From Gammaproteobacteria bacterium (GTDB lineage: Bacteria > Pseudomonadota > Gammaproteobacteria > RBG-16-57-12), in contig JAFLJP010000044.1 of the NCBI GenBank assembly GCA_022712945.1, forward strand, positions 22,939-86,938: a stretch of 64,000 nucleotides of DNA, in the 5' to 3' direction. Position 1 is the first letter of the stretch; the number at the start of each line of letters is the position of its first letter. Positions 2,161-44,249 of this stretch are shown here, one piece after another. Below the pieces are notes generated by a model. That model saw only the letters and a program-made list of their open reading frames with translations. It was not told the DNA's origin and did no database searches. A program made the position numbers and the translations under genes.

Positions 2161-5596
<3,436 letters not shown>

Positions 5597-5699
5597 CCCA
5601 GGTATTTCATGAATTTTCGCAAAAATCGCGCAGATATTGGTTTCACAGGGAAATTCATGAAAATGCCCCATTGCATGATTTTTTAGTGAGATAGCCCTT

Positions 5700-7484
5700 A
5701 TGTGCGGTATTTGTGGTGAGTTACGTTTAGATAGTCGCCAGCCTGATTTAGGGCTGCTAAACAACATGTTAGCCCAGATTGCACGGCGTGGGCCGGATCA
5801 CAGCGGCAGCTATTCGGATGGTCCTTTGGCGCTGGGGCATCGACGGCTTTCGGTTATTGATCTCTCTGAGCGTGCCAATCAGCCGATGGTTGATCCTGAG
5901 CTGGGTTTGGCGATGGTCTTTAACGGGGCAATTTACAACTATCCCGAGCTGCGTAAAGAGCTGCAAGGCAAGGGGTATCAGTTTTTCAGCAGCGGTGACA
6001 GTGAGGTGATTCTCAAAGCCTTCCATGCCTGGGGTGAACAGTGTGTTGCACGCCTGCATGGCATGTTCGCATTTGCGATTTGGGATCTACGCAAAAAAAC
6101 GCTGTTTCTGGCCCGTGACCGCATGGGGATTAAACCGCTCTATTTTACTCAAAACAGTCATACGTTCCGTTTTGCCTCTAATACGCAGGCACTGCTCTGT
6201 GCCCGTGATGTGGATACTTCAATTGATCCGCTTGCGCTACATAACCAGCTGACATTGCATGCGGTGGTGCCCGCGCCGCGCACTATTTTAACCGGTATTC
6301 GTAAACTGGAACCCGGCACCTCAATGACGATTAACCTCAAAGGTGAGGTGGTGAGACAGCATTATTGGCAGCTTAATGCCCAGCGCCCGGCATTGGTTCG
6401 CAGTGAGAGTGAGTGGATTGAAGCGATACATGATGCTTTGCGTTTAGCCGTAAAACGCCGGGTCGAGATTGCCGACGTGCCGGTGGGGGTGCTGCTCTCC
6501 GGTGGTCTGGACTCCAGCTTGCTGGTGGCGTTGCTGGCCGAGGCCGGGGTGAGTGACCTGAGAACCTTCTCGATCGGTTTTGATGATATTGGCGACGAAG
6601 CGGGTAGTGAATTTGAATATTCGGATCGAGTGGTTGAGCGCTATGGCACGCAACATCAAAAATACCATATCGCCAACAGTTCGGTGCTGCCACGCCTGTC
6701 TGAGGCAGTGGATTGTATGGCAGAGCCGATGGTCGGGCAGGATGCAGTTGCCTTTTATCTACTATCGGAGCAGGTTTCACAGGATGTGCGGGTGGTGCAG
6801 AGTGGCCAGGGGGCGGATGAACTGTTTGCCGGGTACTTTTGGTATCCCGAGATGCAAGCGGAGAAGGGCAGCCACCTTGAGCGGTTCCGAAAACACTACT
6901 TCGACCGCAGCCACGATGAGCTGATGGCGGCGGTTTGTCAGCAATACCAAGGAGCGGATCATACCAGTGAACTGGTGGCTGACCACCTTGCTTCACCCGG
7001 TGCCGATGAATTTTTGGATCAGGTACTGCGCTTTGATGTGAGCACCTTGATTGTGGATGACCCGGTGAAGCGGGTTGATAATATGACCATGGCCTGGGGC
7101 CTGGAGGCACGGGTTCCTTTTCTGGATCACGAGCTGGTTGAATTGGCGATGCAGATGCCGCCGCAGATGAAGTTGAAGTCCGGGGGCAAGCACCCCCTGA
7201 AAGAGATTGCACGGGCTATTCTGCCACGGGAAATTATTGATCGCCCCAAAGGTTACTTCCCGATGCCGGCACTGAAATATGTGCAGGGAGAATTTCTCGA
7301 CTTTATGCGCGACATCCTTAATTCACAGGCAAGCCGTGAACGGGGGCTGTTCAAACGGGTCTATATTGATAAGCTGCTGGCCTCGCCAGAGGCTCATTTT
7401 ACGCAGCTGCGTGGCAGCAAGCTATGGCACAGCGCGTTGCTGGAGTTTTGGTTGCAGCGCAATGTGGATAATGCTCGTCGATAG
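5700..7484 (+). CDS. Asparagine synthase family, glutamine-hydrolysing amidotransferase (AsnB/AsnO-like)
   Basis: N-terminal MCGICGE provides the class II GATase catalytic Cys2. The SGGLDSS PP-loop is in the synthetase domain. 594 aa. Confidence 0.9.
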   Translation: MCGICGELRLDSRQPDLGLLNNMLAQIARRGPDHSGSYSDGPLALGHRRLSVIDLSERANQPMVDPELGLAMVFNGAIYNYPELRKELQGKGYQFFSSGDSEVILKAFHAWGEQCVARLHGMFAFAIWDLRKKTLFLARDRMGIKPLYFTQNSHTFRFASNTQALLCARDVDTSIDPLALHNQLTLHAVVPAPRTILTGIRKLEPGTSMTINLKGEVVRQHYWQLNAQRPALVRSESEWIEAIHDALRLAVKRRVEIADVPVGVLLSGGLDSSLLVALLAEAGVSDLRTFSIGFDDIGDEAGSEFEYSDRVVERYGTQHQKYHIANSSVLPRLSEAVDCMAEPMVGQDAVAFYLLSEQVSQDVRVVQSGQGADELFAGYFWYPEMQAEKGSHLERFRKHYFDRSHDELMAAVCQQYQGADHTSELVADHLASPGADEFLDQVLRFDVSTLIVDDPVKRVDNMTMAWGLEARVPFLDHELVELAMQMPPQMKLKSGGKHPLKEIARAILPREIIDRPKGYFPMPALKYVQGEFLDFMRDILNSQASRERGLFKRVYIDKLLASPEAHFTQLRGSKLWHSALLEFWLQRNVDNARR

Positions 7485-10867: not shown

Positions 10868-11194
10868 ATGAAAAAACTGACTTTATTACTGAGCCTGCTG
10901 TTGATTTCGACTTCGGTTATGGCGGCTGAACACGTGGTGTTACAGAAGGGTAAGGCGTTTGTTGAAAATGACAGTGTTGTTGAATCACTCACCCTTGCGG
11001 TGGGTGACAGCATCCGTTTTGTTAATGAAGACCCCTTTTTCCACAACATATTCTCACTCTCAGACCTGAGCACATTTGATCTGGGTTCATTCCCGCAGGG
11101 GGATTCCCGCACCGTTACTTTTGATGAGGCGGGCAGCATGGAGATTGAGTGTGCCATTCACCCTGAAATGTACATGGAGGTGACGATACAGTGA
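10868..11194 (+). CDS. Small secreted cupredoxin, amicyanin/plastocyanin-like
   Basis: Signal peptide present. Candidate type-1 Cu ligands are FFHNIF (His) and a C-terminal CAIHPEM loop (C-x2-H-x2-M, the amicyanin spacing). Confidence 0.7.
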   Translation: MKKLTLLLSLLLISTSVMAAEHVVLQKGKAFVENDSVVESLTLAVGDSIRFVNEDPFFHNIFSLSDLSTFDLGSFPQGDSRTVTFDEAGSMEIECAIHPEMYMEVTIQ

Positions 11195-11853
11195 TGAAAT
11201 CACGGATTAGATTTTCATTTTTAACCACGCTGGTGTTGGCCATTGTCTTGCTGGGTATCAGTAGCCCGGTGGTGGCAAGGGATGGAGCAACGGCGGTAAA
11301 AGAGGCGCGTTCACTGCCCCAGGTACGGGGTGGAATCGTCTTCAAATCCTACTGCATTCTCTGTCATGGTGAAATTGGTGATGGCATTGCCCGTGCTAGT
11401 AAATTGTATGCTCCTGAAAAGCTCATTATTGGGAAAATGGATGAAAAGGATTATGAATCGATTGTCCGCGAAGGCGGGGTTGGAGTGGGGCGCAGTGAGT
11501 ATATGCCACCTTGGGATGGTGAGCTTACTGAGGAGCAGATTGGTGATGTGGTGGCCTATCTTTCGATGTTGGGTGACGGTGTTGCCCGAGGTGAGGTGGT
11601 CTATAAAACCAACTGCGTGTTGTGTCACGGGGTGAATGCTGATGGTAAGGGACGTGTCTCGGTACTGTATGATCCAAAGCCCTCAAACCTGATTCTCTCA
11701 GATAAAAACACCCAGTACAAAATGCTGATTGTTACCAAGGGCGGTGAGTTTTTGGGGCGTTCAGCGGTGATGCCACCGTGGGGTTTGCAGTTGTCAGATC
11801 AGGAAATTAAGGATGTGGTGAGCTATATCGACACGCGGGTTGTCTCTGAGTAG
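11194..11853 (+). CDS. Dihaem c-type cytochrome
   Basis: Signal peptide plus two class-I domains, each with CxxCH (CILCHGE, CVLCHGV) and a distal MPPW Met. The start overlaps the cupredoxin stop (TGATG); an alternative GTG lies at 11191. Confidence 0.85.
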   Translation: MKSRIRFSFLTTLVLAIVLLGISSPVVARDGATAVKEARSLPQVRGGIVFKSYCILCHGEIGDGIARASKLYAPEKLIIGKMDEKDYESIVREGGVGVGRSEYMPPWDGELTEEQIGDVVAYLSMLGDGVARGEVVYKTNCVLCHGVNADGKGRVSVLYDPKPSNLILSDKNTQYKMLIVTKGGEFLGRSAVMPPWGLQLSDQEIKDVVSYIDTRVVSE

Positions 11854-11886
11854 ATGAATACGCTGTTTTGCCAACAGTGCCATGGG

Positions 11887-12528
11887 TTACCCCCCCATTC
11901 CCATGGAAAAATCTTCAAAGCTGCGTGATAGCGTATCCCAGCGATTAACAATGGTGCAGAACAGCTCTGCGGTGCGCTCGGTATCATAAAGCGCTCCGTG
12001 AGCTTGGCTGTCATCCCAGGAGAGGCCAGCAGCCTGAACCGCTTTGGCAAGCACCGTTTGACCATAAGCAAGTCCACCCAGCGTTGCGGTATCAAAGGTA
12101 CCAAAATCGTGGAATGGATTACGCTTTATGCCGTTACGAGCCACCGCTGCTCTGAGAAAATTGAGGTCAAAAGCGGGGTTGTGCCCCACCAAAATTGCCC
12201 GGCTACAGCCGGTGTTTTTTACCTCTTTACGCACCATGGTGAAGAGTTTTTCGATCGCATCCTTTTCATGAATGGCCCCCCGAAACGGGTGAAAAGGATC
12301 AATGCCGGTAACATCCAGCGAGGCTTGCTCAATATTGGCCCCTTCAAAAGGGTCGGTGTGGCAGTGAATACTCTCTTTCAGGTGAATATCACCCCCATCG
12401 TCCATATCCAGTGTGACCGCTGCAATCTCTAATAGCGCATCGGTGTGATGGTTGAAGCCACCGGTCTCCACGTCAACAACCACCGGTAAAAAACCACGAA
12501 AACGCTGTGTAATAGCTGATTTAGACAT
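11887..12528 (-). CDS. rnt: Ribonuclease T
   Basis: [30 protein letters not shown] (DEDDh exonuclease motif I), 213 aa, collinear with E. coli Rnt. Confidence 0.92.
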
Positions 12529-16527: not shown

Positions 16528-16578
16528 CCCCAAAGAAAGGTATAATCCCCGGCTTATTTTTAGTAAAGCAGTGTTGTA

Positions 16579-18588
16579 ATGGAAGGCCTTAACCCTCGTC
16601 AAAAAGAAGCGGTACTCTATATTGATAGCCCCTGCCTAGTGCTGGCGGGAGCTGGAAGTGGCAAGACGCGGGTGATTACCGAAAAAATTGCCTATCTAAT
16701 TCAACAATGCGGCTACAAGCCTAACACTGTTGCCGCTGTCACCTTTACCAACAAAGCGGCCCGTGAGATGAAGAGCCGGGTGGGTAAATTGTTGCAGGGC
16801 AAGGAGGCCCGTGGGCTGAAAGTATCCACTTTTCACACCCTCGGCTTAAATATTTTGAAGCGCGAGCACAAAACCCTTGGCTATAAAGCGGGTTTTACCA
16901 TCTTTGATGCCGCAGACAGTGCCGCGCTGATTAAAGAGCTGATGCACAAGTCGTTCGATTGTGACGGTGATATGGTGCAACAGGTGCAGTGGCAGATATC
17001 CAGCTGGAAAAATGCCATGATCACCCCCGATCTAGCACTGAACCTGACCGAAGATGACGCACTGAAAGTGGCAGCTGCCACCATTTATGAAAAATATCAA
17101 CGTAACCTCAAAGCCTACAATGCGGTCGATTTTGATGATCTGATCCTGATGCCCACGCTGCTGTTTGCTCAGTATCCCGAGATATTGGCCCGCTGGCAGG
17201 CACGCATCCGCTACCTGTTGGTTGATGAATATCAGGATACCAATGGTTGCCAATATACCCTGGTGAAACAGATTGTCGGCCTGCGCGGCAGCCTCACCGT
17301 GGTGGGGGATGATGACCAGTCGATCTACGCCTGGCGCGGTGCGCAACCTGAAAATATGGCACTGCTGAAAGAAGACTTTCCCAGTCTCAAGCTCATCAAG
17401 CTGGAACAAAATTATCGCTCCATGGGGCGAATCCTCAAAGCGGCCAATGAGCTGATCGCCAACAACCCGCATCTGTTTGAAAAGAAGCTGTGGTCTGACA
17501 AGGGTTATGGTGATCCACTGCGAGTACTACATTGCCGCAATGAGGAGCATGAAGCCGAGCGGGTGGTCTCAGAGATGCTGCACCACAAGTTCCAAAATCG
17601 TACCCAGGATCAGGATTACGCCATCCTCTATCGCAGCAATCATCAATCACGACTGCTCGAACGTATGCTGCGGGAGCATCGCATTCCCTATCACCTCAGC
17701 GGAGGCACCTCCTTTTTCGCAAAAACTGAAATTAAAGACATCATGGCCTATCTGCGCCTGCTGGTGAATCAGGATGATGACAACGCCTTCCTGCGGATTG
17801 TTAATGTACCCCGCCGTGAACTGGGGCCATCGACCCTAGAAAAGTTGGGCAGTTACGCCACCATGCGTGGCATCAGCCTGTTTACTGCCAGCTTCGAACT
17901 GGGCCTGGGTGAACACCTTAACGAACGTCAGCTGGAGCGCCTGCAACGCTTCACCCACTGGATCAACCTGCAAGCCGACAATACCAAACGGGGTGATACG
18001 CTGGCGGTTATTAAAGGCATGGTGACTGATATTGGTTATTCAGATTGGTTGATGGAGAGCAGTAAAAATGAAACACAGGCAGAAAAACGCCTGCAAAATG
18101 TTTACGACCTTATCGAGTGGTTGGGGCGCATGATACAGGAGGGCGATAAAGACCTTGCAGAGGCGGTGGCCAGTATGGCGCTACTCGACATACTCGATCG
18201 CCAAAACGAGGAGGAGAGCACGGATGCTGTCACCCTGATGACCCTGCACGCGGCAAAGGGGCTGGAGTTTCCCCACGTTTTTCTGATGGGGGTTGAAGAG
18301 GAGATATTGCCACACCGCAACAGCATTGAAAATGACGACGTTGAAGAGGAGCGCCGCCTAGCTTATGTGGGGATCACCCGCGCACAAAAGACCCTGACTA
18401 TGAGCTACGCCGCCAGACGCAAACAGTATGGTGAACTCACCGCATGTGAACCCAGTCGCTTTCTCTATGAACTGCCCCAGGATGACCTTGAGTGGGAAGG
18501 GCGGGGCGGTGAAACCTGCCCTGAGAAGAAGAAAGAGCGCGGCAAAGCCAACCTTGCCAATCTCAAGAGCATTTTAGGGCAGGGATAG
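16579..18588 (+). CDS. rep: ATP-dependent DNA helicase Rep
   Basis: 669 aa UvrD/Rep superfamily-1 helicase. Has AGAGSGKTRVIT (Walker A), LLVDEYQDTN and the correct length for Rep. Confidence 0.9.
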   Translation: MEGLNPRQKEAVLYIDSPCLVLAGAGSGKTRVITEKIAYLIQQCGYKPNTVAAVTFTNKAAREMKSRVGKLLQGKEARGLKVSTFHTLGLNILKREHKTLGYKAGFTIFDAADSAALIKELMHKSFDCDGDMVQQVQWQISSWKNAMITPDLALNLTEDDALKVAAATIYEKYQRNLKAYNAVDFDDLILMPTLLFAQYPEILARWQARIRYLLVDEYQDTNGCQYTLVKQIVGLRGSLTVVGDDDQSIYAWRGAQPENMALLKEDFPSLKLIKLEQNYRSMGRILKAANELIANNPHLFEKKLWSDKGYGDPLRVLHCRNEEHEAERVVSEMLHHKFQNRTQDQDYAILYRSNHQSRLLERMLREHRIPYHLSGGTSFFAKTEIKDIMAYLRLLVNQDDDNAFLRIVNVPRRELGPSTLEKLGSYATMRGISLFTASFELGLGEHLNERQLERLQRFTHWINLQADNTKRGDTLAVIKGMVTDIGYSDWLMESSKNETQAEKRLQNVYDLIEWLGRMIQEGDKDLAEAVASMALLDILDRQNEEESTDAVTLMTLHAAKGLEFPHVFLMGVEEEILPHRNSIENDDVEEERRLAYVGITRAQKTLTMSYAARRKQYGELTACEPSRFLYELPQDDLEWEGRGGETCPEKKKERGKANLANLKSILGQG

Positions 18589-38600: not shown

Positions 38601-39593
38601 TTTTTCCACAATGGCAAAGCGGTGTTGAGCGAGAGCCGTGTTGATCTCTATCGGGCTTGGTCTGAAACCACCTATAACATGCAGAAACTGCGTGATAACC
38701 CGGAGTGCGCCCAGCAGGAGTATGACCGCTTGCTGGATGTTAACGATCCGGGGCTGCACGCCAGCCTGAGCTTTGGCCTTGATGACAATATCGCCGCACC
38801 TTATATATCCACCGGCCTTAAACCGCGTATTGCAGTGCTGCGGGAGCAGGGGGTTAATGGGCAGATTGAGATGGCAGCGGCGTTTGATCGTGCCGGTTTC
38901 TCATCGGTTGATGTGCATATGAGTGATATTATCGAAGGGCGGGTTTCACTGGATGAATTCAAGGGGCTGGTGGCGTGTGGCGGTTTCTCTTACGGTGATG
39001 TATTGGGTGCCGGTGGTGGCTGGGCCAAGTCGATACTGCATAACAGCCGTGCCCGTGATCAATTTGCAGCCTTTTTCCAGCGTGACGACAGCTTTGGCCT
39101 CGGTGTCTGTAACGGCTGCCAGATGATCTCTAATCTGCACTCGTTAATTCACGGTGCGGATTTGTGGCCGCATCTGGTACGTAATGAATCAGAGCAGTTT
39201 GAAGCGCGTCTCACCATGGTCGAAATTATGGAGAATAACTCGGTATTTCTACAAGGTATGGCCGGTTCACGGATGCCGATTGCCGTCGCACACGGTGAGG
39301 GGCGGGTGCAATTCCGTGCCGGTACCAGCGCAGAGCAGGCGATGAGCGCTGGTGTGGTTGGTCTGCGTTATGTGGATAATCGCGGACAGGCGACCGAAAA
39401 CTACCCCATGAACCCCAACGGTTCACCACTGGGCATTGCCGGTGTCACCTCCCGCGATGGCCGCTTTACCATTATGATGCCGCACCCTGAGCGGGTATTT
39501 CGTGCCGTGCAACACTCATGGCATCCGGATGAGTGGGGTGAAGATGGCCCATGGATGCGGATGTTCCGCAACGCCCGGGTTTGGGTGGGTTGA
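35691..39593 (+). CDS. purL: Phosphoribosylformylglycinamidine synthase (single-chain large PurL)
   Basis: 1300 aa, [20 protein letters not shown] as in E. coli PurL. The C-terminal GATase has GVCNGCQM and HPER. Confidence 0.96.
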
Positions 39594-39598
39594 TTGTT

Positions 39599-39626
39599 TT
39601 GAAGTGTGGTTTTAATCACACTTCAA
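39599..39626. other. Perfect 10-bp stem-loop 5 nt after the purL stop
   Basis: TTGAAGTGTG-gttttaat-CACACTTCAA, followed by an A-rich run rather than a T-rich one, so it is not a canonical intrinsic terminator on the plus strand. Confidence 0.6.
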
Positions 39627-39748
39627 GCAAACAAAAAAATAAATAAAAGAAGTAGTAAATATAATTTTGCGTATGACGATGTATACTCATAGCTGAAAAG
39701 GCTGTTTTCAGTGGACTTATAATAGTGCAGGCGGGTAATAAGAACAAA

Positions 39749-40024
39749 ATGAGCGAGCAGGCAAAGAAAATCGTAATTAAAGGTGTTACCCAGGAAGGGG
39801 GAAAGTTTCGTCCAAGTGATTGGGCAACTCGTCTTACCAATGCCGTCTCTAAGCCTGGTCGTGGTGGCCGTTTGATTTATAATCCCAAGGTTAAAATGGC
39901 GATAATTGATGGCATTAACTGTGTTGTGATTGACCCGAGCCTGGAGAGTGAAGAGGCAATGCTCTATGCTTTTTTGATCAACTTTGCGACTAGCAATAAT
40001 CTGCAGGTAGATATTCCGGAATAA
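39749..40024 (+). CDS. DUF3579-like small protein
   Basis: VIKGVTQEGGKFRPSDWATRL...INCVVIDPSLESEEAMLYAFLINFATSNNLQV matches my memory of the DUF3579 pattern. ATG 39749; an alternative GTG lies at 39725. Confidence 0.65.
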   Translation: MSEQAKKIVIKGVTQEGGKFRPSDWATRLTNAVSKPGRGGRLIYNPKVKMAIIDGINCVVIDPSLESEEAMLYAFLINFATSNNLQVDIPE

Positions 40025-40048
40025 TCTCTTGTGGCTGATAAATTAGAA

Positions 40049-40081
40049 GGCCAGAGTGGGTTCCCCGCTCTGGCCTTTTTT
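40049..40081. terminator. Bidirectional Rho-independent terminator
   Basis: GGCCAGAGTGGG-ttcc-CCGCTCTGGCC followed by TTTTTT, with an A-rich run upstream. It sits between the convergent DUF3579 and anti-sigma genes. Confidence 0.8.
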
Positions 40082-40109
40082 GTGGGCATGTCTAATGTTA
40101 AACCCCCTC

Positions 40110-40352
40110 TTATTTTGTCTGGTTCTGAGTGTAATGATCAAACAGGTTATCAACGATCTGTTTTGCTTTTTCATCGCTAATTGTGTTTGGTGTCATCTTG
40201 ACCATGTAAATCGTTGTGCGCAATTGTTTCAGGTAGCGACGACAGTGGCGGCAGAGGAGTAGGTGCATTTTTAACTGTAGTGTTTTAGAGAGGGGGAGTT
40301 GTTTTCCCAGATAGTCACCCGCCTGCTCTGTCAGCTCTTTACAACTTAGCAC
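40110..40352 (-). CDS. Zinc-finger (ZAS, zf-HC2) anti-sigma factor, short soluble form
   Basis: 80 aa. HLLLCRHC gives the H-x3-C-x2-C motif, and no TM segment is present. 7-nt overlap with the upstream ECF sigma gene. Confidence 0.75.
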   Translation of the reverse strand: MLSCKELTEQAGDYLGKQLPLSKTLQLKMHLLLCRHCRRYLKQLRTTIYMVKMTPNTISDEKAKQIVDNLFDHYTQNQTK

Positions 40353-40969
40353 GTGCCCTCCTGATGAAATATTTCAATCATGTTGCGTATCCGGTTTCGT
40401 GCACGGTGAAGCAGCACCCTTAAATTAGACTCACTAATATCGAGTAAATTACAGATCTCCTGGCTGGGTAACTCTTGTTGCTCGTACATATCGAGTGCTG
40501 TTCGTTGTTGGTGGGGTAGCTTTTCGATGGTTTTTTCGAGGCAGTCACCCAGCTGCTGACTTGAGAGTAGCGTTTCCGGGTCGTCACTCTCCCAGCGGCT
40601 GGGTGGGCTCTGCCAGTGGCCTTGTGAATTAAAACGTTGGGGATTGATTAGGGGCGAGTCATCCAGGGTATATTCACCCAAGTGCAGCTGGCGTGACTCC
40701 CGGCGCAGTCGGGATTTTGCTGCATTGGCTACAATGCGCATCAACCAGGTTTTGAAGCTGGAGCGACGCTCAAATTTATCAAGCCCTTTGGCCATCGATA
40801 ACCATGACTCTTGTACCACCTCTTCTGCAAAAGCATCACCGATGATCGAGCGTGCCAGATTAACCATGATGTACTGATAGTGTTTGACGACAATGATGTA
40901 GGTGGCCTGGTCTTTTTTTAATAACCCGCTGATTAACTGCTCGTCATCGGGTAGTGGCTTGTGGCTCAA
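40346..40969 (-). CDS. ECF-type RNA polymerase sigma-70 family factor
   Basis: 207 aa. Region 2 is AEEVVQESWLSMAKGLDKFERRSSFKTWLMRIVAN and region 4 is LPSQEICNLLDISESNLRVLLHRAR. TTG start at 40969 lies 6 nt after GGAG. Confidence 0.85.
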   Translation of the reverse strand: MSHKPLPDDEQLISGLLKKDQATYIIVVKHYQYIMVNLARSIIGDAFAEEVVQESWLSMAKGLDKFERRSSFKTWLMRIVANAAKSRLRRESRQLHLGEYTLDDSPLINPQRFNSQGHWQSPPSRWESDDPETLLSSQQLGDCLEKTIEKLPHQQRTALDMYEQQELPSQEICNLLDISESNLRVLLHRARNRIRNMIEIFHQEGTC

Positions 40970-41088
40970 GGTGAACTCCGATTGTCATTTGAAAAATCTT
41001 GCTGTTGTAACAATTTAACAGTAGATGAATCTGAATAACAATATTGTCATAAAATAGGGAGCGATTGTGCTCTCAGTGGGGGATTTTG

Positions 41089-42054
41089 ATGTTAGAGACA
41101 TTACCGTTGTTGGATCAGCGTGCTTTTCCGGCTATTCAGCGGACTACGTTACAGACCTTGCAAGTGAATCTGGGTTATCGCTGCAATTTGCAGTGTTTGC
41201 ACTGCCATGTCAATGCGGGGCCAAAGCGGACGGAGGAGATGGTGCGTGAGACTATTGAGCAGGTATTAACCTTTATCGATAAACAGAGTATCAAAACACT
41301 CGATTTGACAGGTGGTGCCCCAGAGCTGAATAGCGATTTTTGCTATCTGGTGAGCGAGGCGCGACGGAGGGGGGTGACGGTAATTGACCGTTGTAATCTC
41401 ACCATACTGCAAGAGCCGGGTATGGAATCACTGGCAGAGTTTTTGGCACAGCAGCAGGTCGAGGTGGTGGCCTCTCTTCCCTGTTATCTGGAGGAAAATG
41501 TGGATTCTCAGCGGGGTGATGGGGCATTTGATGGGAGTATTCAGGGGCTGCTTAAGCTAAATGGGTTGGGTTATGGGGTTGAAGGTTCCGGGCTGCAACT
41601 TAACCTGGTTTACAATCCGCAGGGTGTTGCACTGCCACCGCCACAGGATACGCTGGAGACGGCTTATAAAACGGCACTTTTTGAGCGTTACGGTATTGTA
41701 TTTAATCAACTGTTTACCATTACCAATGTACCGATCAAGCGGTTTGGCAGCATGCTGCTCTCCAGGGGAGAGTTTGAGCCTTACATGGATTTGTTACAAC
41801 AGTCGTATAGCAAAGACAATCTTGAATCCGTTATGTGTCGCACCTTGTTGAGTGTTGATTGGCAAGGGTATCTCTACGACTGTGATTTTAACCAAATGCT
41901 TGATCTGTCGTTGGGATGTGGTGACGGCAAGTCGATACATCTATCCCAGCTAACCCAGGCCAGTTTGGAAGGTGAATCCATTGTGGTGCGTGACCACTGT
42001 TATGCCTGTACCGCAGGGCAGGGGAGTAGCTGTGGTGGTGCGTTGAGCGAATGA
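41089..42054 (+). CDS. Radical SAM/Cys-rich domain protein (ArsS-like, arsenosugar-type radical SAM family)
   Basis: CNLQCLHC (CxxxCxxC) near the N-terminus. The C-terminal Cys-rich tail is CDFN...CGDG...CYACTAGQGSSCGG. About 321 aa from ATG 41089, with no in-frame TGA (the Cys rather than Sec form). Confidence 0.85.
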   Translation: MLETLPLLDQRAFPAIQRTTLQTLQVNLGYRCNLQCLHCHVNAGPKRTEEMVRETIEQVLTFIDKQSIKTLDLTGGAPELNSDFCYLVSEARRRGVTVIDRCNLTILQEPGMESLAEFLAQQQVEVVASLPCYLEENVDSQRGDGAFDGSIQGLLKLNGLGYGVEGSGLQLNLVYNPQGVALPPPQDTLETAYKTALFERYGIVFNQLFTITNVPIKRFGSMLLSRGEFEPYMDLLQQSYSKDNLESVMCRTLLSVDWQGYLYDCDFNQMLDLSLGCGDGKSIHLSQLTQASLEGESIVVRDHCYACTAGQGSSCGGALSE

Positions 42055-42728
42055 GTCAGCGTATTTCGATTATTATCCCCGCTCTAAATGAGGGTGACGG
42101 TATCACCTCAACATTGGCGCGATTGACTCCCTGCCGTGCCGATGGCCATGAGGTGATTGTGGTTGATGGTGGTAGCTGTGATGAGACTATGGCACTGGCC
42201 AGGCCACTTTCTGACCAGGTGATCAGCAGTGAGTGTGGTCGAGCACGCCAGATGAACCGTGGTGCCGCCCTCGCCTCGGGCGATATTTTACTTTTTCTGC
42301 ATGCGGATACCCAATTGCCAGAAAATGGCTTGCTTCTTATTCAGTCAGCACTCTCTGCTAAGAAAACCTGGGGGCGCTTTGATGTGCGATTGTCGGGTCA
42401 GCATCCTCTATTTCGCGTTATCGAAAAGATGATGAACTGGCGCTCCTCTTTCAGCGGAATATCAACGGGAGATCAAGCCATTTTTGTGCTGCGTGACCAG
42501 TTTGAGCGTATTGGTGGTTTTCCCGAACAGCTCTTGATGGAAGATGTTGAGTTGAGCAGACGGCTCAAAAAAATAGTGCCGCCATTTTGTATTCGAACCC
42601 CATTGACCACCTCCAGCCGCCGTTGGGAGCAGCGGGGTATTTTTACCACCATCCTGTTGATGTGGCGGTTGCGCTTTCTCTATTGGTTAGGTGTTGATGC
42701 CAGAAAACTGGCCAAGATGTATCGTTAA
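42051..42728 (+). CDS. GT-A fold (family 2-like) glycosyltransferase, rSAM-associated transferase type
   Basis: ISIIIPALNEGD, VIVVDGGSCDET and LFLHADTQLP. ATGA overlap with the radical SAM gene. Confidence 0.8.
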   Translation: MSQRISIIIPALNEGDGITSTLARLTPCRADGHEVIVVDGGSCDETMALARPLSDQVISSECGRARQMNRGAALASGDILLFLHADTQLPENGLLLIQSALSAKKTWGRFDVRLSGQHPLFRVIEKMMNWRSSFSGISTGDQAIFVLRDQFERIGGFPEQLLMEDVELSRRLKKIVPPFCIRTPLTTSSRRWEQRGIFTTILLMWRLRFLYWLGVDARKLAKMYR

Positions 42729-42833
42729 GGAAGCTCTGAACAAGTCATGATTATTTTACGTTGGCGAAAATTTCTTCTACATCCATGCAGGCATCAGCCT
42801 AATTCTAACCAGACTTATTCAGAGCTTCCCTAA
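42725..42833. repeat. 109-bp short hairpin element, TTAAGG type (copy R5)
   Basis: TTAAGGAAGCTCTGAACAAGTC...GACTTATTCAGAGCTTCCCTAA. Its first nucleotides include the TAA stop of the upstream gene, and its last A is the A of the downstream ATG. Confidence 0.85.
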
Positions 42834-43477
42834 TGATCTATCCAGAGGCAAAAATTCTCCTGTTTGCAAAAGCACCCATCTCCGGAACGGTTAAAACCAG
42901 GCTGATCCCCGATATTGGCGAGTACGCGGCAACGGAACTGCATAAAGAGCTGGTACTCAATGCCCTGAACACCATCACTGAAGGGGCACTATCTCCTGTT
43001 GAGTTATGGTGTGCACCGAATACCCAACACCCCTTTTTTACTGAGTGCCAGCATCGCTTTTCAGCCTCACTTCATTGTCAGCAAGGGGTTGGTCTGGGGG
43101 CGCGAATGCACCATGCCCTGAACCAAAATCGTGGCACACCGACGTTATTGATCGGTAGTGACATTCCAACAATAGATGCCAGTTATCTAAAGCAGGGAAT
43201 TGAGGCGCTGTTGTGCGGTGAATCGTGGGTTATCGGCCCCGCAGAGGATGGAGGCTATGTTTTAATCGGTTGTCGCAACAGTGATGAGCGATTGTTCAGC
43301 GGTGTAACATGGGGCCGGAACCGGGTATTGGCACAGACGATAAAAAAGGCGGAGCAGTGTGGTGTGACGCCACGTCTGCTGGAGCCGTTGTGGGATCTGG
43401 ATAATGTTGCTGATTTAGCGCGTTGGCAGGAGATTAAACGTGCTACGCTTCACCCAGGCTGCCGCCACTCTGTTTGA
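42833..43477 (+). CDS. DUF2064 family nucleotidyl/glycosyl-transferase-like protein (rSAM-associated transferase type)
   Basis: ILLFAKAPISGTVKTRL, LIGSDIPTI and GPAEDGGYVLIG are typical of DUF2064 (CofC/MobA-like fold). Confidence 0.8.
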   Translation: MIYPEAKILLFAKAPISGTVKTRLIPDIGEYAATELHKELVLNALNTITEGALSPVELWCAPNTQHPFFTECQHRFSASLHCQQGVGLGARMHHALNQNRGTPTLLIGSDIPTIDASYLKQGIEALLCGESWVIGPAEDGGYVLIGCRNSDERLFSGVTWGRNRVLAQTIKKAEQCGVTPRLLEPLWDLDNVADLARWQEIKRATLHPGCRHSV

Positions 43478-43919
43478 TGGTTTTCCCGCTGGCACCATAG
43501 ACTGAGTGCCTATCTCTTTTTAGAAGCACATCAAGGGTCTGTTCTGTCTGATTTTGGCAGCCGTCGACTATCTGACTGTTAATCAGGTTTTCATTTTTAC
43601 ATTCAGCGGCTAAATCCCGTGCTTTTTTCAGTAGTGACAACAAGTTGTACTTGTTTTTGGGATCAAGTTTGTGGATCGTTGTTTCCGGTTGTTCGTTGCT
43701 GTTGTCACCCAGTGTCTGTTTAAAACAAGAGAGTATTTCAATTTCTGTTTGGGCTAGAACTTCAATCAGTTTTAACTTGTTTTGGGTCAGTTCGGGTAAT
43801 TTGTCGATCAGATTTTGTGCGATAATTTCACGCTCTTGCTGTAGCAGGCGCAAAAAACCCTCAGATGCTGAGATCTGACTGATCAGGGATTGTTGCAGTT
43901 GTTGAGCGGTGCTGCTCAT
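43443..43919 (-). CDS. flgN: Flagellar export chaperone FlgN
   Basis: 158 aa helical protein directly downstream of flgM. N-terminus QQLQQSLISQISASEGFLRLLQQEREIIAQN resembles FlgN. Confidence 0.75.
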   Translation of the reverse strand: MSSTAQQLQQSLISQISASEGFLRLLQQEREIIAQNLIDKLPELTQNKLKLIEVLAQTEIEILSCFKQTLGDNSNEQPETTIHKLDPKNKYNLLSLLKKARDLAAECKNENLINSQIVDGCQNQTEQTLDVLLKRDRHSVYGASGKTIKQSGGSLGEA

Positions 43920-43925
43920 TTTGAG

Positions 43926-44249
43926 TTACGACACATTGTTAAGTGCGGTCTCCATGCCCAGCATTTTTTCAGCTGTGACTCTGTTATCCACATGAAATGT
44001 CCCCTCATTAAGCGCCTGTTTGATGCTCTCAACACGTGCGGTATCCGCAACCGGCAGTGCTGCCAGAGTATTCTCCAGTTTTTGCAACTGTGCTGCGGTG
44101 TCTGTCAGGCTAACGGTATCGGCGGTGGATGAGCCACCGGTCTCCTCCTGGGCCACCGTCGGCTCGCTACGCGCAACACTTACCTGAGAGTTTTCGTTGT
44201 TTGCCTGAACCCGGTGGCCCGCACCGAGTCCGTTGATATCAATCGCCAT
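43926..44249 (-). CDS. flgM: Anti-sigma-28 factor FlgM
   Basis: 107 aa. The C-terminus ARVESIKQALNEGTFHVDNRVTAEKML is the conserved FlgM sigma28-binding region. Confidence 0.88.
   Translation of the reverse strand: MAIDINGLGAGHRVQANNENSQVSVARSEPTVAQEETGGSSTADTVSLTDTAAQLQKLENTLAALPVADTARVESIKQALNEGTFHVDNRVTAEKMLGMETALNNVS

Follow-up and report, generated by a model that had tools for sequence, protein, structure and literature searches.

The 64,000-nt window analyzed here (the whole stretch, from contig JAFLJP010000044.1 of a Gammaproteobacteria bacterium) contains a five-gene locus in which the genes for a sigma factor of the extracytoplasmic function (ECF) class and a small anti-sigma factor diverge from three genes that encode a radical S-adenosylmethionine (rSAM) enzyme of the ArsS family, a GT2 transferase, and a DUF2064 transferase (Table 1). 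On balance, we think it probable that the five genes form one unit, in which a thiol-reactive signal would free the ECF sigma from its anti-sigma, and the sigma would then read an ECF promoter ahead of an ArsS-type operon that lacks ArsM. The design itself is a standard one, in which an ECF sigma is co-transcribed with its soluble zinc-type anti-sigma and the target operon diverges from them; the conserved target is new.

When one genome was scanned for each species, the window rSAM protein matched more than 590 species-level genomes, and we compared the 80 closest loci (L001-L080; rSAM proteins 60-67% identical to that of the window). At least 11 of them contain a sigma and short anti-sigma pair of the same family, and in 14 the rSAM gene has a related sigma gene no more than 5 kb away. 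The exact divergent order of the window recurred in six (L018, L023, L048, L049, L057, and L062), all of which share the flagellar flank ycgR/flgN/flgM/flgA/cheV/cheR, and was also seen in L105. Counting this divergent order, the pair and the rSAM cluster are combined in at least five gene orders among related loci; the others are sigma>anti-sigma>(DUF3179, DedA, PiT)>rSAM>GT2>DUF2064 in L007, L008, and L017; sigma>anti-sigma>rSAM in Methylomicrobium (L072); rSAM>DedA-oxidoreductase>sigma>anti-sigma in Stutzerimonas stutzeri (L078); DedA-oxidoreductase>sigma>anti-sigma>DedA>rSAM>ArsM>GT2>DUF2064 in L174; and a pair placed after ArsM or DUF2064 in L232, L205, and L033. The arrangements other than the divergent order are clearly independent. 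Metagenome relatives with anti-sigma proteins 88, 81, and 63% identical to that of the window retain all five genes of the module; beyond the anti-sigma gene, the least similar of them (63%) has a GST-like gene, a Crp-type regulator, and fliS/fliD where the window has DUF3579 and purL. The first-pass annotation of this DNA, made by a model from the letters alone, had staked its proposed link between pair and trio on synteny in other genomes, and the pair is syntenic with the trio in many of them.

A complementary search, for which seven sigma proteins were aligned as the query, yielded 77 new sigma-centred loci (L088-L164), in about 60 of which an anti-sigma gene lies directly downstream of the sigma gene. 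Orthologous sigmas in loci of the same architecture are 42-52% identical to the window sigma. The sigmas that occur with ArsS-type clusters fall into two subtypes that share about 30% identity, both of them with the same kind of anti-sigma; the second subtype ("B") is found inside ArsS-type clusters in L007, L008, L017, L072, L174, L202, L205, L232, and L233. We found no common TGTAA-type promoter motif in the subtype B loci (L007, L008, L017, L072, L174, and others).

The second line of evidence is a promoter motif in the spacer between the divergent genes, consisting of TGTAAC (41006-41011), 18 nt, and TCTGA (41030-41034). We took GTAAC-N18-TC, as read from the window by the first-pass annotation, as an a-priori pattern and searched the 80 rSAM loci with it. 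Of 68 matches, 12 were on the coding strand in the 450 nt that precede the rSAM gene, a zone that makes up 1.4% of the searched positions and is expected to hold 0.98 matches (12-fold enrichment; binomial P = 3e-10, or 4e-8 without two near-duplicate loci). These upstream matches include loci that have no sigma gene nearby (L032, L039, L051, L061, L067, and L068), and in Pseudomonas, Halopseudomonas, and Stutzerimonas (the same loci and L078) the consensus reads cTGTAACA-N17-TCTAA. When a position matrix built from 12 instances, with the window left out, was used to score both strands of the 64 kb, the best of approximately 128,000 positions was 41004-41038 (score 13.8). The second-best site, GTTGTAAT-N17-TCAAA at 16573-16607 on the plus strand (score 12.6), is probably a chance match, as the start codon of a gene for a UvrD/Rep-type helicase (16579-18588) falls within it.

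These numbers bear on the objection that pair and trio are neighbors by coincidence, in which case an ordinary promoter of the sigma-70 type would serve the trio and the ECF motif would be there by chance. A single TGTAAC-N18-TC in the window is indeed what chance predicts (1.19 expected), and a weak sigma-70-like element, TTAACA-16-AACAAT (9 of 12 positions), overlaps the motif at 41015-41042. Against this stand the window-free matrix that puts the site first, the enrichment upstream of rSAM genes, and a linkage that recurs across independent gene orders; coincidence, already disfavored, is in our estimate highly improbable. Recurrent synteny in varied orders and a conserved promoter motif at the very site that the first-pass annotation had named together bear out its view that the ECF pair is tied to the divergent trio.

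The motif can be followed to operons of the sigma family itself. In operons of the order DoxX>sigma>anti-sigma (L090, L091, L106, and L100), it is located 25-60 nt upstream of the leading DoxX-like gene, the usual place for ECF autoregulation; it faces the divergent rSAM gene from within the spacer of L105, and in Marinobacter (L125), beside an orthologous sigma, it points towards a divergent operon with the DedA-oxidoreductase gene and towards a DUF3179 gene. Since the motif precedes operons of orthologous sigmas and faces their divergent targets, it can be assigned to the family of the window sigma: by this comparison, TGTAAC-N18-TCnA is the promoter specificity of that family, and the rSAM operon of the window carries it. 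Its use would place the predicted transcription start near 41041, with a leader of approximately 47 nt. No gene of the rSAM cluster was found within 10 kb of the DoxX>sigma>anti-sigma operons, so the regulon of the sigma family varies between lineages. DoxX precedes the pair in L090 (9314-9964), L091, L097, L100, L106, and L088, from Cellvibrio, Kangiellaceae, Spongiibacter, and Zhongshania.

The first-pass annotation had likened the motif to RpoE-type promoters, and a general envelope-stress sigma of the RpoE/AlgU type might read it while the local pair controls other genes. Part of that likeness holds, in that the AAC-N18-TC geometry and the TCTGA -10 element equal those of the Escherichia coli sigma-E consensus; the best solved relative of the window sigma is E. 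coli RpoE (1or7, E = 4e-19), and the window sigma gene has no autoregulatory copy of the motif upstream. The likeness fails at the -35 element, which reads (T/G)GTAA(C/T) in 17 of 17 aligned instances and GGAACTT in none, with TC(T/C)(A/G)A as the -10 element of the family. Moreover, the motif travels with the sigma family across orders (the operons of L090, L091, and L106; the spacers of L105 and L125), and the window sigma reaches only 75.9 bits against the cut-off of 236 of the RpoE model TIGR02939. We regard a reading by RpoE or AlgU as quite unlikely.

Profile searches (Pfam and NCBI/TIGR models, bit scores against curated cut-offs) placed each of the five proteins above one curated cut-off, in agreement with the families first proposed for them. 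The sigma protein, of 207 residues, matched Sigma70_r2 (PF04542, 4.7e-14) and Sigma70_r4_2 (PF08281, 2.4e-12) and scored 92 bits with TIGR02937 (cut-off 42.9); all equivalog models stayed below their cut-offs in the same search. By these matches, it qualifies as an ECF (group 4) sigma-70 factor with regions 2 and 4 only. The anti-sigma scored 52.8 bits with NF052368 (cut-off 50) and fell slightly below the threshold of Pfam zf-HC2 (20.2 vs. 22.2). Its residues C4 and H30-x3-C34-x2-C37 are all invariant in 11 homologues from rSAM-linked loci; homologues that accompany either sigma subtype are 66-91 residues long and begin with M-x-S-C-K/R-E/D. No membrane segment was detected in it, the most hydrophobic 19-residue window averaging 0.43 on the Kyte-Doolittle scale. 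The protein thus fits a soluble class I anti-sigma domain on its own, with a complete C-H-C-C zinc-type site and of the zinc-binding anti-sigma (ZAS) type that the first-pass annotation had proposed from its H-x3-C-x2-C motif and the missing membrane segment. The annotation had also called this architecture RsrA-like, which is apt for the soluble form and the C-H-C-C site and does not extend to orthology: the RsrA model TIGR03988 gave 18.4 bits where its cut-off requires 62.5, by which we ruled out an RsrA orthologue. A PDB search with the anti-sigma sequence alone returned only spurious leucine-rich-repeat matches; a profile of its homologues aligned C4/H30/C34/C37 with C3/H30/C34/C37 of RsiW (chain 5wuq_C), a weak match (E = 0.02).

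On the other side of the spacer, the rSAM protein scored 462 bits with the ArsS model TIGR04167 (cut-off 300) and carries CNLQCLHC (a CX3CX2C cluster motif), Radical_SAM (PF04055), and a Cys-rich C-terminal DUF3641 domain (PF12345, 3e-56). It can be classed as a member of the ArsS family, with adenosylation of dimethylarsenite, DMAs(III), a reaction known for the cyanobacterial enzyme, as its predicted activity. A PDB search matched YydG alone, through its generic radical SAM core, and gave no solved structure for the ArsS family. The GT2 protein (TIGR04283, 279 bits vs. 182; Pfam Glycos_transf_2) has dolichol-phosphate mannose synthase as its nearest solved structure (5mlz, E = 2e-6), and the DUF2064 protein (TIGR04282, 182 bits vs. 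134; also PF09837) matched 3cgx (E = 3e-16), with a CofC/MobA-like nucleotide-diphospho-sugar transferase fold. The NCBI models for TIGR04283 and TIGR04282, both passed, are named for arsenosugar biosynthesis glycosyltransferases. Among the 80 rSAM loci, GT2 directly follows the rSAM gene in 31, and GT2 and DUF2064 are both in the locus in 45. Clustering of the neighbors revealed further recurring companions, namely a DedA-oxidoreductase fusion, a free DedA, a sodium:solute symporter-like protein, DUF547, DUF3047, DUF3179, and a 342-residue protein without a family. The fusion, of a VTT/DedA domain with a pyridine-nucleotide disulfide oxidoreductase, is the commonest (28 of 80 loci); it is approximately 713 residues long with a MerA/Lpd-like part, for example in L013 (11614-13755), and also occurs in Marinobacter L125 (3654-5879).

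The first-pass annotation had suggested that the trio may be unrelated to arsenic, and here the relatives speak against it. The sister locus L048, with the same divergent ECF pair and flagellar flank, has an ArsM-like gene (11036-12160) directly after the rSAM gene, in the place of GT2. Such an ArsM-like methyltransferase (372 residues) directly follows the rSAM gene in 7 of the 80 rSAM loci and is missing from that position in 73. A second set was centered on ArsM (L165-L244; the best 80 of 192 matches to the L048 ArsM-like protein), and here 60 of the 80 have the ArsM-like gene after an rSAM gene; the order (DedA-oxidoreductase, DedA,) rSAM, ArsM-like, GT2, DUF2064 is seen in approximately 25. 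In a neighbor-joining tree of 136 rSAM proteins, ArsM-linked and ArsM-less enzymes were interleaved, and their identities to the window rSAM are nearly the same (58-65% and 60-67%, respectively). From the ArsM-like gene of L048, the 60 of 80 ArsM-centred loci, and the interleaved tree, we conclude that the window trio is an ArsM-less form of one orthologous ArsS/ArsM-type cluster and not a separate system. The motifs CC, GCG, SNCV, and W..GC of the ArsM-like protein match the four conserved ArsM cysteines. The best 80 of the 192 ArsM-like matches include none from the metagenome-assembled genomes of L018, L023, L049, L057, and L062, which are incomplete. This distinct subfamily is almost always encoded directly after an ArsS-type rSAM gene, mainly in Methylococcales, Methylophaga, and Piscirickettsiaceae, and also in L050 (10983-12101). 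A sigma-containing cluster, L007, has a PHO4/PiT-type phosphate transporter gene (4819-5910) between DedA and the rSAM gene; carriers of this type also take up arsenate.

The same regulatory link could still serve a chemistry other than that of arsenic, with oxidative or thiol stress sensed by the ECF pair and a sulfur- or selenium-containing or envelope-linked metabolite made or repaired by the trio, as by its frequent companions DedA-disulfide reductase, DUF547, and DUF3047; this corresponds to the view of the first-pass annotation. The gene content gives this some footing, with no ars gene in 81.6 kb of the contig and 73 of the 80 closest rSAM loci without an adjacent ArsM-like gene. These frequent neighbors are not known as arsenic genes, and in other loci relatives of the window sigma have DoxX and oxidoreductase genes under their control. 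TIGR04167 also has some selenoproteins among its members (PMC13188914). It has to be set against these points that ArsM-like genes lie between rSAM and GT2 in many gammaproteobacteria, and are present in L048 beside the same ECF pair; that ArsM-linked and ArsM-less rSAM proteins are inseparable in the tree; and that the sole reaction demonstrated for the family is the ArsS-catalyzed adenosylation of DMAs(III) to 5'-deoxy-5'-dimethylarsinoyl-adenosine (DDMAA; PMC13598754). A role unrelated to arsenic is therefore the less economical reading, possible in our estimate and less probable than the ArsS-type reading.

Taking the five genes as one ArsS-type unit, we propose the following course of events. 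In the unstressed cell, the cytoplasmic anti-sigma would bind the ECF sigma and keep it inactive, as class I anti-sigma domains do. Because the anti-sigma has neither another sensor domain nor a membrane anchor, the signal should act in the cytoplasm, on the C-H-C-C site or on the stability of the protein; the context suggests an intracellular thiol-reactive signal that would attack or displace the zinc-thiolate site. RsrA-like redox switching would be one such route, by analogy with the soluble C-H-C-C architecture only. The first candidate signal would be a soft metalloid (arsenite or methylarsenite), since the same pair stands beside clusters with ArsM-like genes and, once, a PiT carrier; an oxidant or electrophile would be the alternative. 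The freed sigma would then direct RNA polymerase to the TGTAAC-N18-TCTGA promoter, and rSAM, GT2, and DUF2064 would be transcribed. The rSAM enzyme would most likely attach 5'-deoxyadenosyl to a methylated metalloid in the trivalent state, by analogy with ArsS and dimethylarsenite, and the two transferases may then process the nucleoside or ribose conjugate.

A further element could close this circuit. A copy of the motif within the sigma gene (40453-40424, minus strand) lies approximately 70 nt upstream of the anti-sigma start, under the codons for I-C-N-L-L-D-I-S-E-S-N in region 4.2. An in-frame copy is present in 14 orthologous sigma genes from several orders, approximately 490 nt into the gene and 100 nt before the anti-sigma start (L088 10500, L089 1908, L092 10488, L093 3926, L094 2422, L095 10491, L096 3914, L097 10497, L099 7071, L103 5576, L112 10512, L117 10491, L125 6552, and L140 797), under codons for I-C-N-x-L-x-V/I-S-x-S-N. 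Quantification of codon choice revealed that the second serine, which supplies the "TC," is encoded by TCN in 20 of 20 genes and the first serine in 7 of 19 (Fisher P = 1e-5), and that the cysteine codon is TGT in 20 of 20; as the sigma genes are related to one another, these counts overstate independence. This bias points to constraint on the DNA as well as the protein, and the copy may be a sigma-dependent promoter for the anti-sigma gene alone; its transcription may set up a negative feedback loop, and, if the promoter is real, this would be negative feedback without positive autoregulation.

The boldest version of this model, in which the anti-sigma directly senses trivalent (methyl)arsenic or another soft metalloid through its three zinc-site cysteines, so frees the sigma and, with built-in feedback from the internal promoter in the codons of the sigma's DNA-recognition helix, controls organoarsenical (arsenosugar-type) synthesis in chemolithotrophic and methylotrophic proteobacteria, we hold to be doubtful. 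If true, no sigma/anti-sigma switch for arsenic would have preceded it.

Several observations weigh against the five-gene unit as drawn here. ECF sigmas usually have their promoter upstream of their own operon as well, and such autoregulatory copies are present in the orthologous loci L090, L091, and L106. On the strand of the window sigma gene, the matrix scan found none upstream of it, and hence no sign of the positive autoregulation that is usual. The RpoE-type spacing and -10 element could also admit a contribution from a housekeeping sigma-E. As regards synteny, the shared flagellar flank means that the six same-order loci may go back to one ancestral event, and approximately 80% of the related rSAM loci have neither an adjacent ECF pair nor the motif, which makes the ECF regulation lineage-specific. 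Many of the anti-sigma domains that bind zinc do not act as redox sensors (PMC7406223). On the chemical side, the ArsM-like protein stays below the curated cut-offs (NF040538, 350 vs. 500; NF008823, 193 vs. 263; NF038099, 125), and the called genes over contig positions 14,117-95,704 (81.6 kb) carry no Pfam label for ArsR, ArsC, ArsB/Acr3, or ArsM. Searches of the 64 kb by tblastn likewise returned no match to the ArsM-like, DedA-oxidoreductase, DUF547, DUF3047, or symporter homologues; the first-pass statement that the 64 kb hold no ars genes thus stands for the window and for approximately 18 kb beyond it.

The coordinates of the locus are collected in Table 1. Open reading frame calls confirmed the five genes, both overlaps, and the 119-bp spacer, the public gene calls of the source contig, a metagenome contig of 121 kb (ENA ERZ14212212 NODE_5), agree, and every checked detail of the first-pass gene calls, overlaps, spacer, and motif position was correct. 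The sigma gene ends in ...GGCACGTGCTAA, and the GTG start of the anti-sigma gene lies inside that string, resulting in a 7-nt overlap (GTGCTAA). For the rSAM gene, the ATG at 41089 is the best-supported start by its GGGGGA Shine-Dalgarno sequence and by homologues that align from residue 1.

Table 1. Features of the ECF/ArsS-type locus, in positions of the 64,000-nt window.
Feature	Position	Strand	Details
Anti-sigma gene	40110-40352	-	80 aa, GTG start
ECF sigma gene	40346-40969	-	207 aa, TTG start
Candidate internal promoter TGTAAT-N18-TCTAAT, inside sigma gene	40424-40453	-	Matrix score 9.5
Divergent control region between sigma and rSAM genes	40970-41088	.	119 bp
Predicted ECF-type promoter TGTAAC-N18-TCTGA facing rSAM operon	41006-41034	+	Matrix and enrichment
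rSAM gene, ArsS family	41089-42054	+	321 aa from ATG
GT2 gene (GT-A fold, TIGR04283)	42051-42728	+	ATGA overlap with rSAM gene
DUF2064/TIGR04282 gene, last in operon	42833-43477	+	Starts 104 nt after GT2

The spacer is kept in the closer relatives L253, L251, and L250. Its -35 element lies 37 nt from the start codon of the window sigma gene and abuts that codon in L049, L057, and L062; in so compact a spacer, the promoter of the sigma gene itself would have to overlap the ECF promoter on the opposite strand, and the two could interfere. By eye, TTGTTA-17-TTAAAT at 41041-41013 (minus strand) weakly resembles a sigma-70 element and may be suggested as the sigma gene promoter. A riboswitch or attenuator in the predicted 5' leader was rejected, as the fold of 41042-41095 was no better than that of shuffled sequences (z = -0.43), and an Rfam scan of 39400-44000 gave a single sub-threshold match (TwoAYGGAY, E = 0.75). 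Downstream, the 3' ends of DUF2064 (+) and the convergent flgN (-) share 35 nt (43443-43477), and the module abuts a flgN-flgM-flgA/cheV-cheR-flgB flagellar cluster, as it does in L010, L018, L020, L023, L048, L049, and L057. Elsewhere, the window holds an AmmeMemoRadiSam triad (AMMECR1, 710-1279, minus; Memo, 1266-2051, minus; radical SAM gene, 2161-3267, plus), which is a second radical SAM system unrelated to the ArsS-type operon.

The ArsS-type rSAM gene and its two transferases are very widespread, as the single scan reported above indicates, and the names of their families rest largely on co-occurrence. A sigma/anti-sigma pair with a defined promoter offers a practical switch for inducing this orphan gene set. 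The comparison also ties this broad family of sigmas, with their short soluble zinc-type anti-sigmas, to a recurring set of genes, namely those for rSAM, the ArsM-like methyltransferase, the DedA-disulfide reductase, DUF547, DUF3047, DUF3179, and DoxX. If the signal is a metalloid, the pair would join ArsR as an arsenic sensor of a new class. In the literature that we searched, we found neither an ECF sigma linked to an ArsS-type cluster, nor a promoter of this sigma family, nor ECF control of an arsenosugar cluster in place of an ArsR-type repressor; the 2021 ECF reclassification paper gave no text on ECF pairs in an ArsS-type context.

Among known systems, the locus is most readily set beside SigR-RsrA of Streptomyces coelicolor (ECF12), a thiol-disulfide switch that likewise combines an ECF sigma with a small, soluble, domain-only anti-sigma bearing a Cys...His-x3-Cys-x2-Cys site. 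The window pair differs in that it belongs to another phylum, has no mycothiol context, scores far below the RsrA model (18.4 vs. 62.5), and has a single biosynthetic operon as its target, whereas that of SigR is a thiol-homeostasis regulon; the SigR promoter is GGAAT-N18-GTT, that of the window TGTAAC-N18-TCTGA. With SigW-RsiW of Bacillus subtilis (5wuq), the sole solved anti-sigma domain found, the weak alignment is shared at the C-H-C-C residues; RsiW is a membrane protein inactivated by regulated proteolysis, unlike the window anti-sigma, which has no membrane segment. E. coli RpoE resembles the window sigma as its best solved relative and in promoter geometry (AAC-N18-TC, with a TCTGA-like -10 element). 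The sigma-E consensus is GGAACTT-N16-TCAAA, in contrast to TGTAAC at the -35 element of the window, and the partner of RpoE is the membrane protein RseA in place of a soluble zinc-type protein. The anti-sigmas of ECF16 are multi-pass membrane proteins of the NrsF/DUF1109 type. ECF16 systems (SigF/EcfF/BcrS) respond to H2O2 and HOCl and use the promoter (T/C)GTAAC-N16/17-CGAA (PMC8315932, PMC3420878). The window shares the -35 element TGTAAC with them and departs from them in its -10 element (TCTGA/TCTAA vs. CGAA) and its soluble 80-residue anti-sigma, and its sigma falls outside ECF16. Finally, the locus is unlike the ArsS/ArsM pathway of Synechocystis in that the window has no ArsM and the ArsM-like genes of its relatives form a separate subfamily below the curated cut-offs, and it is like that pathway in its rSAM enzyme and both transferases, all of which pass the family models.

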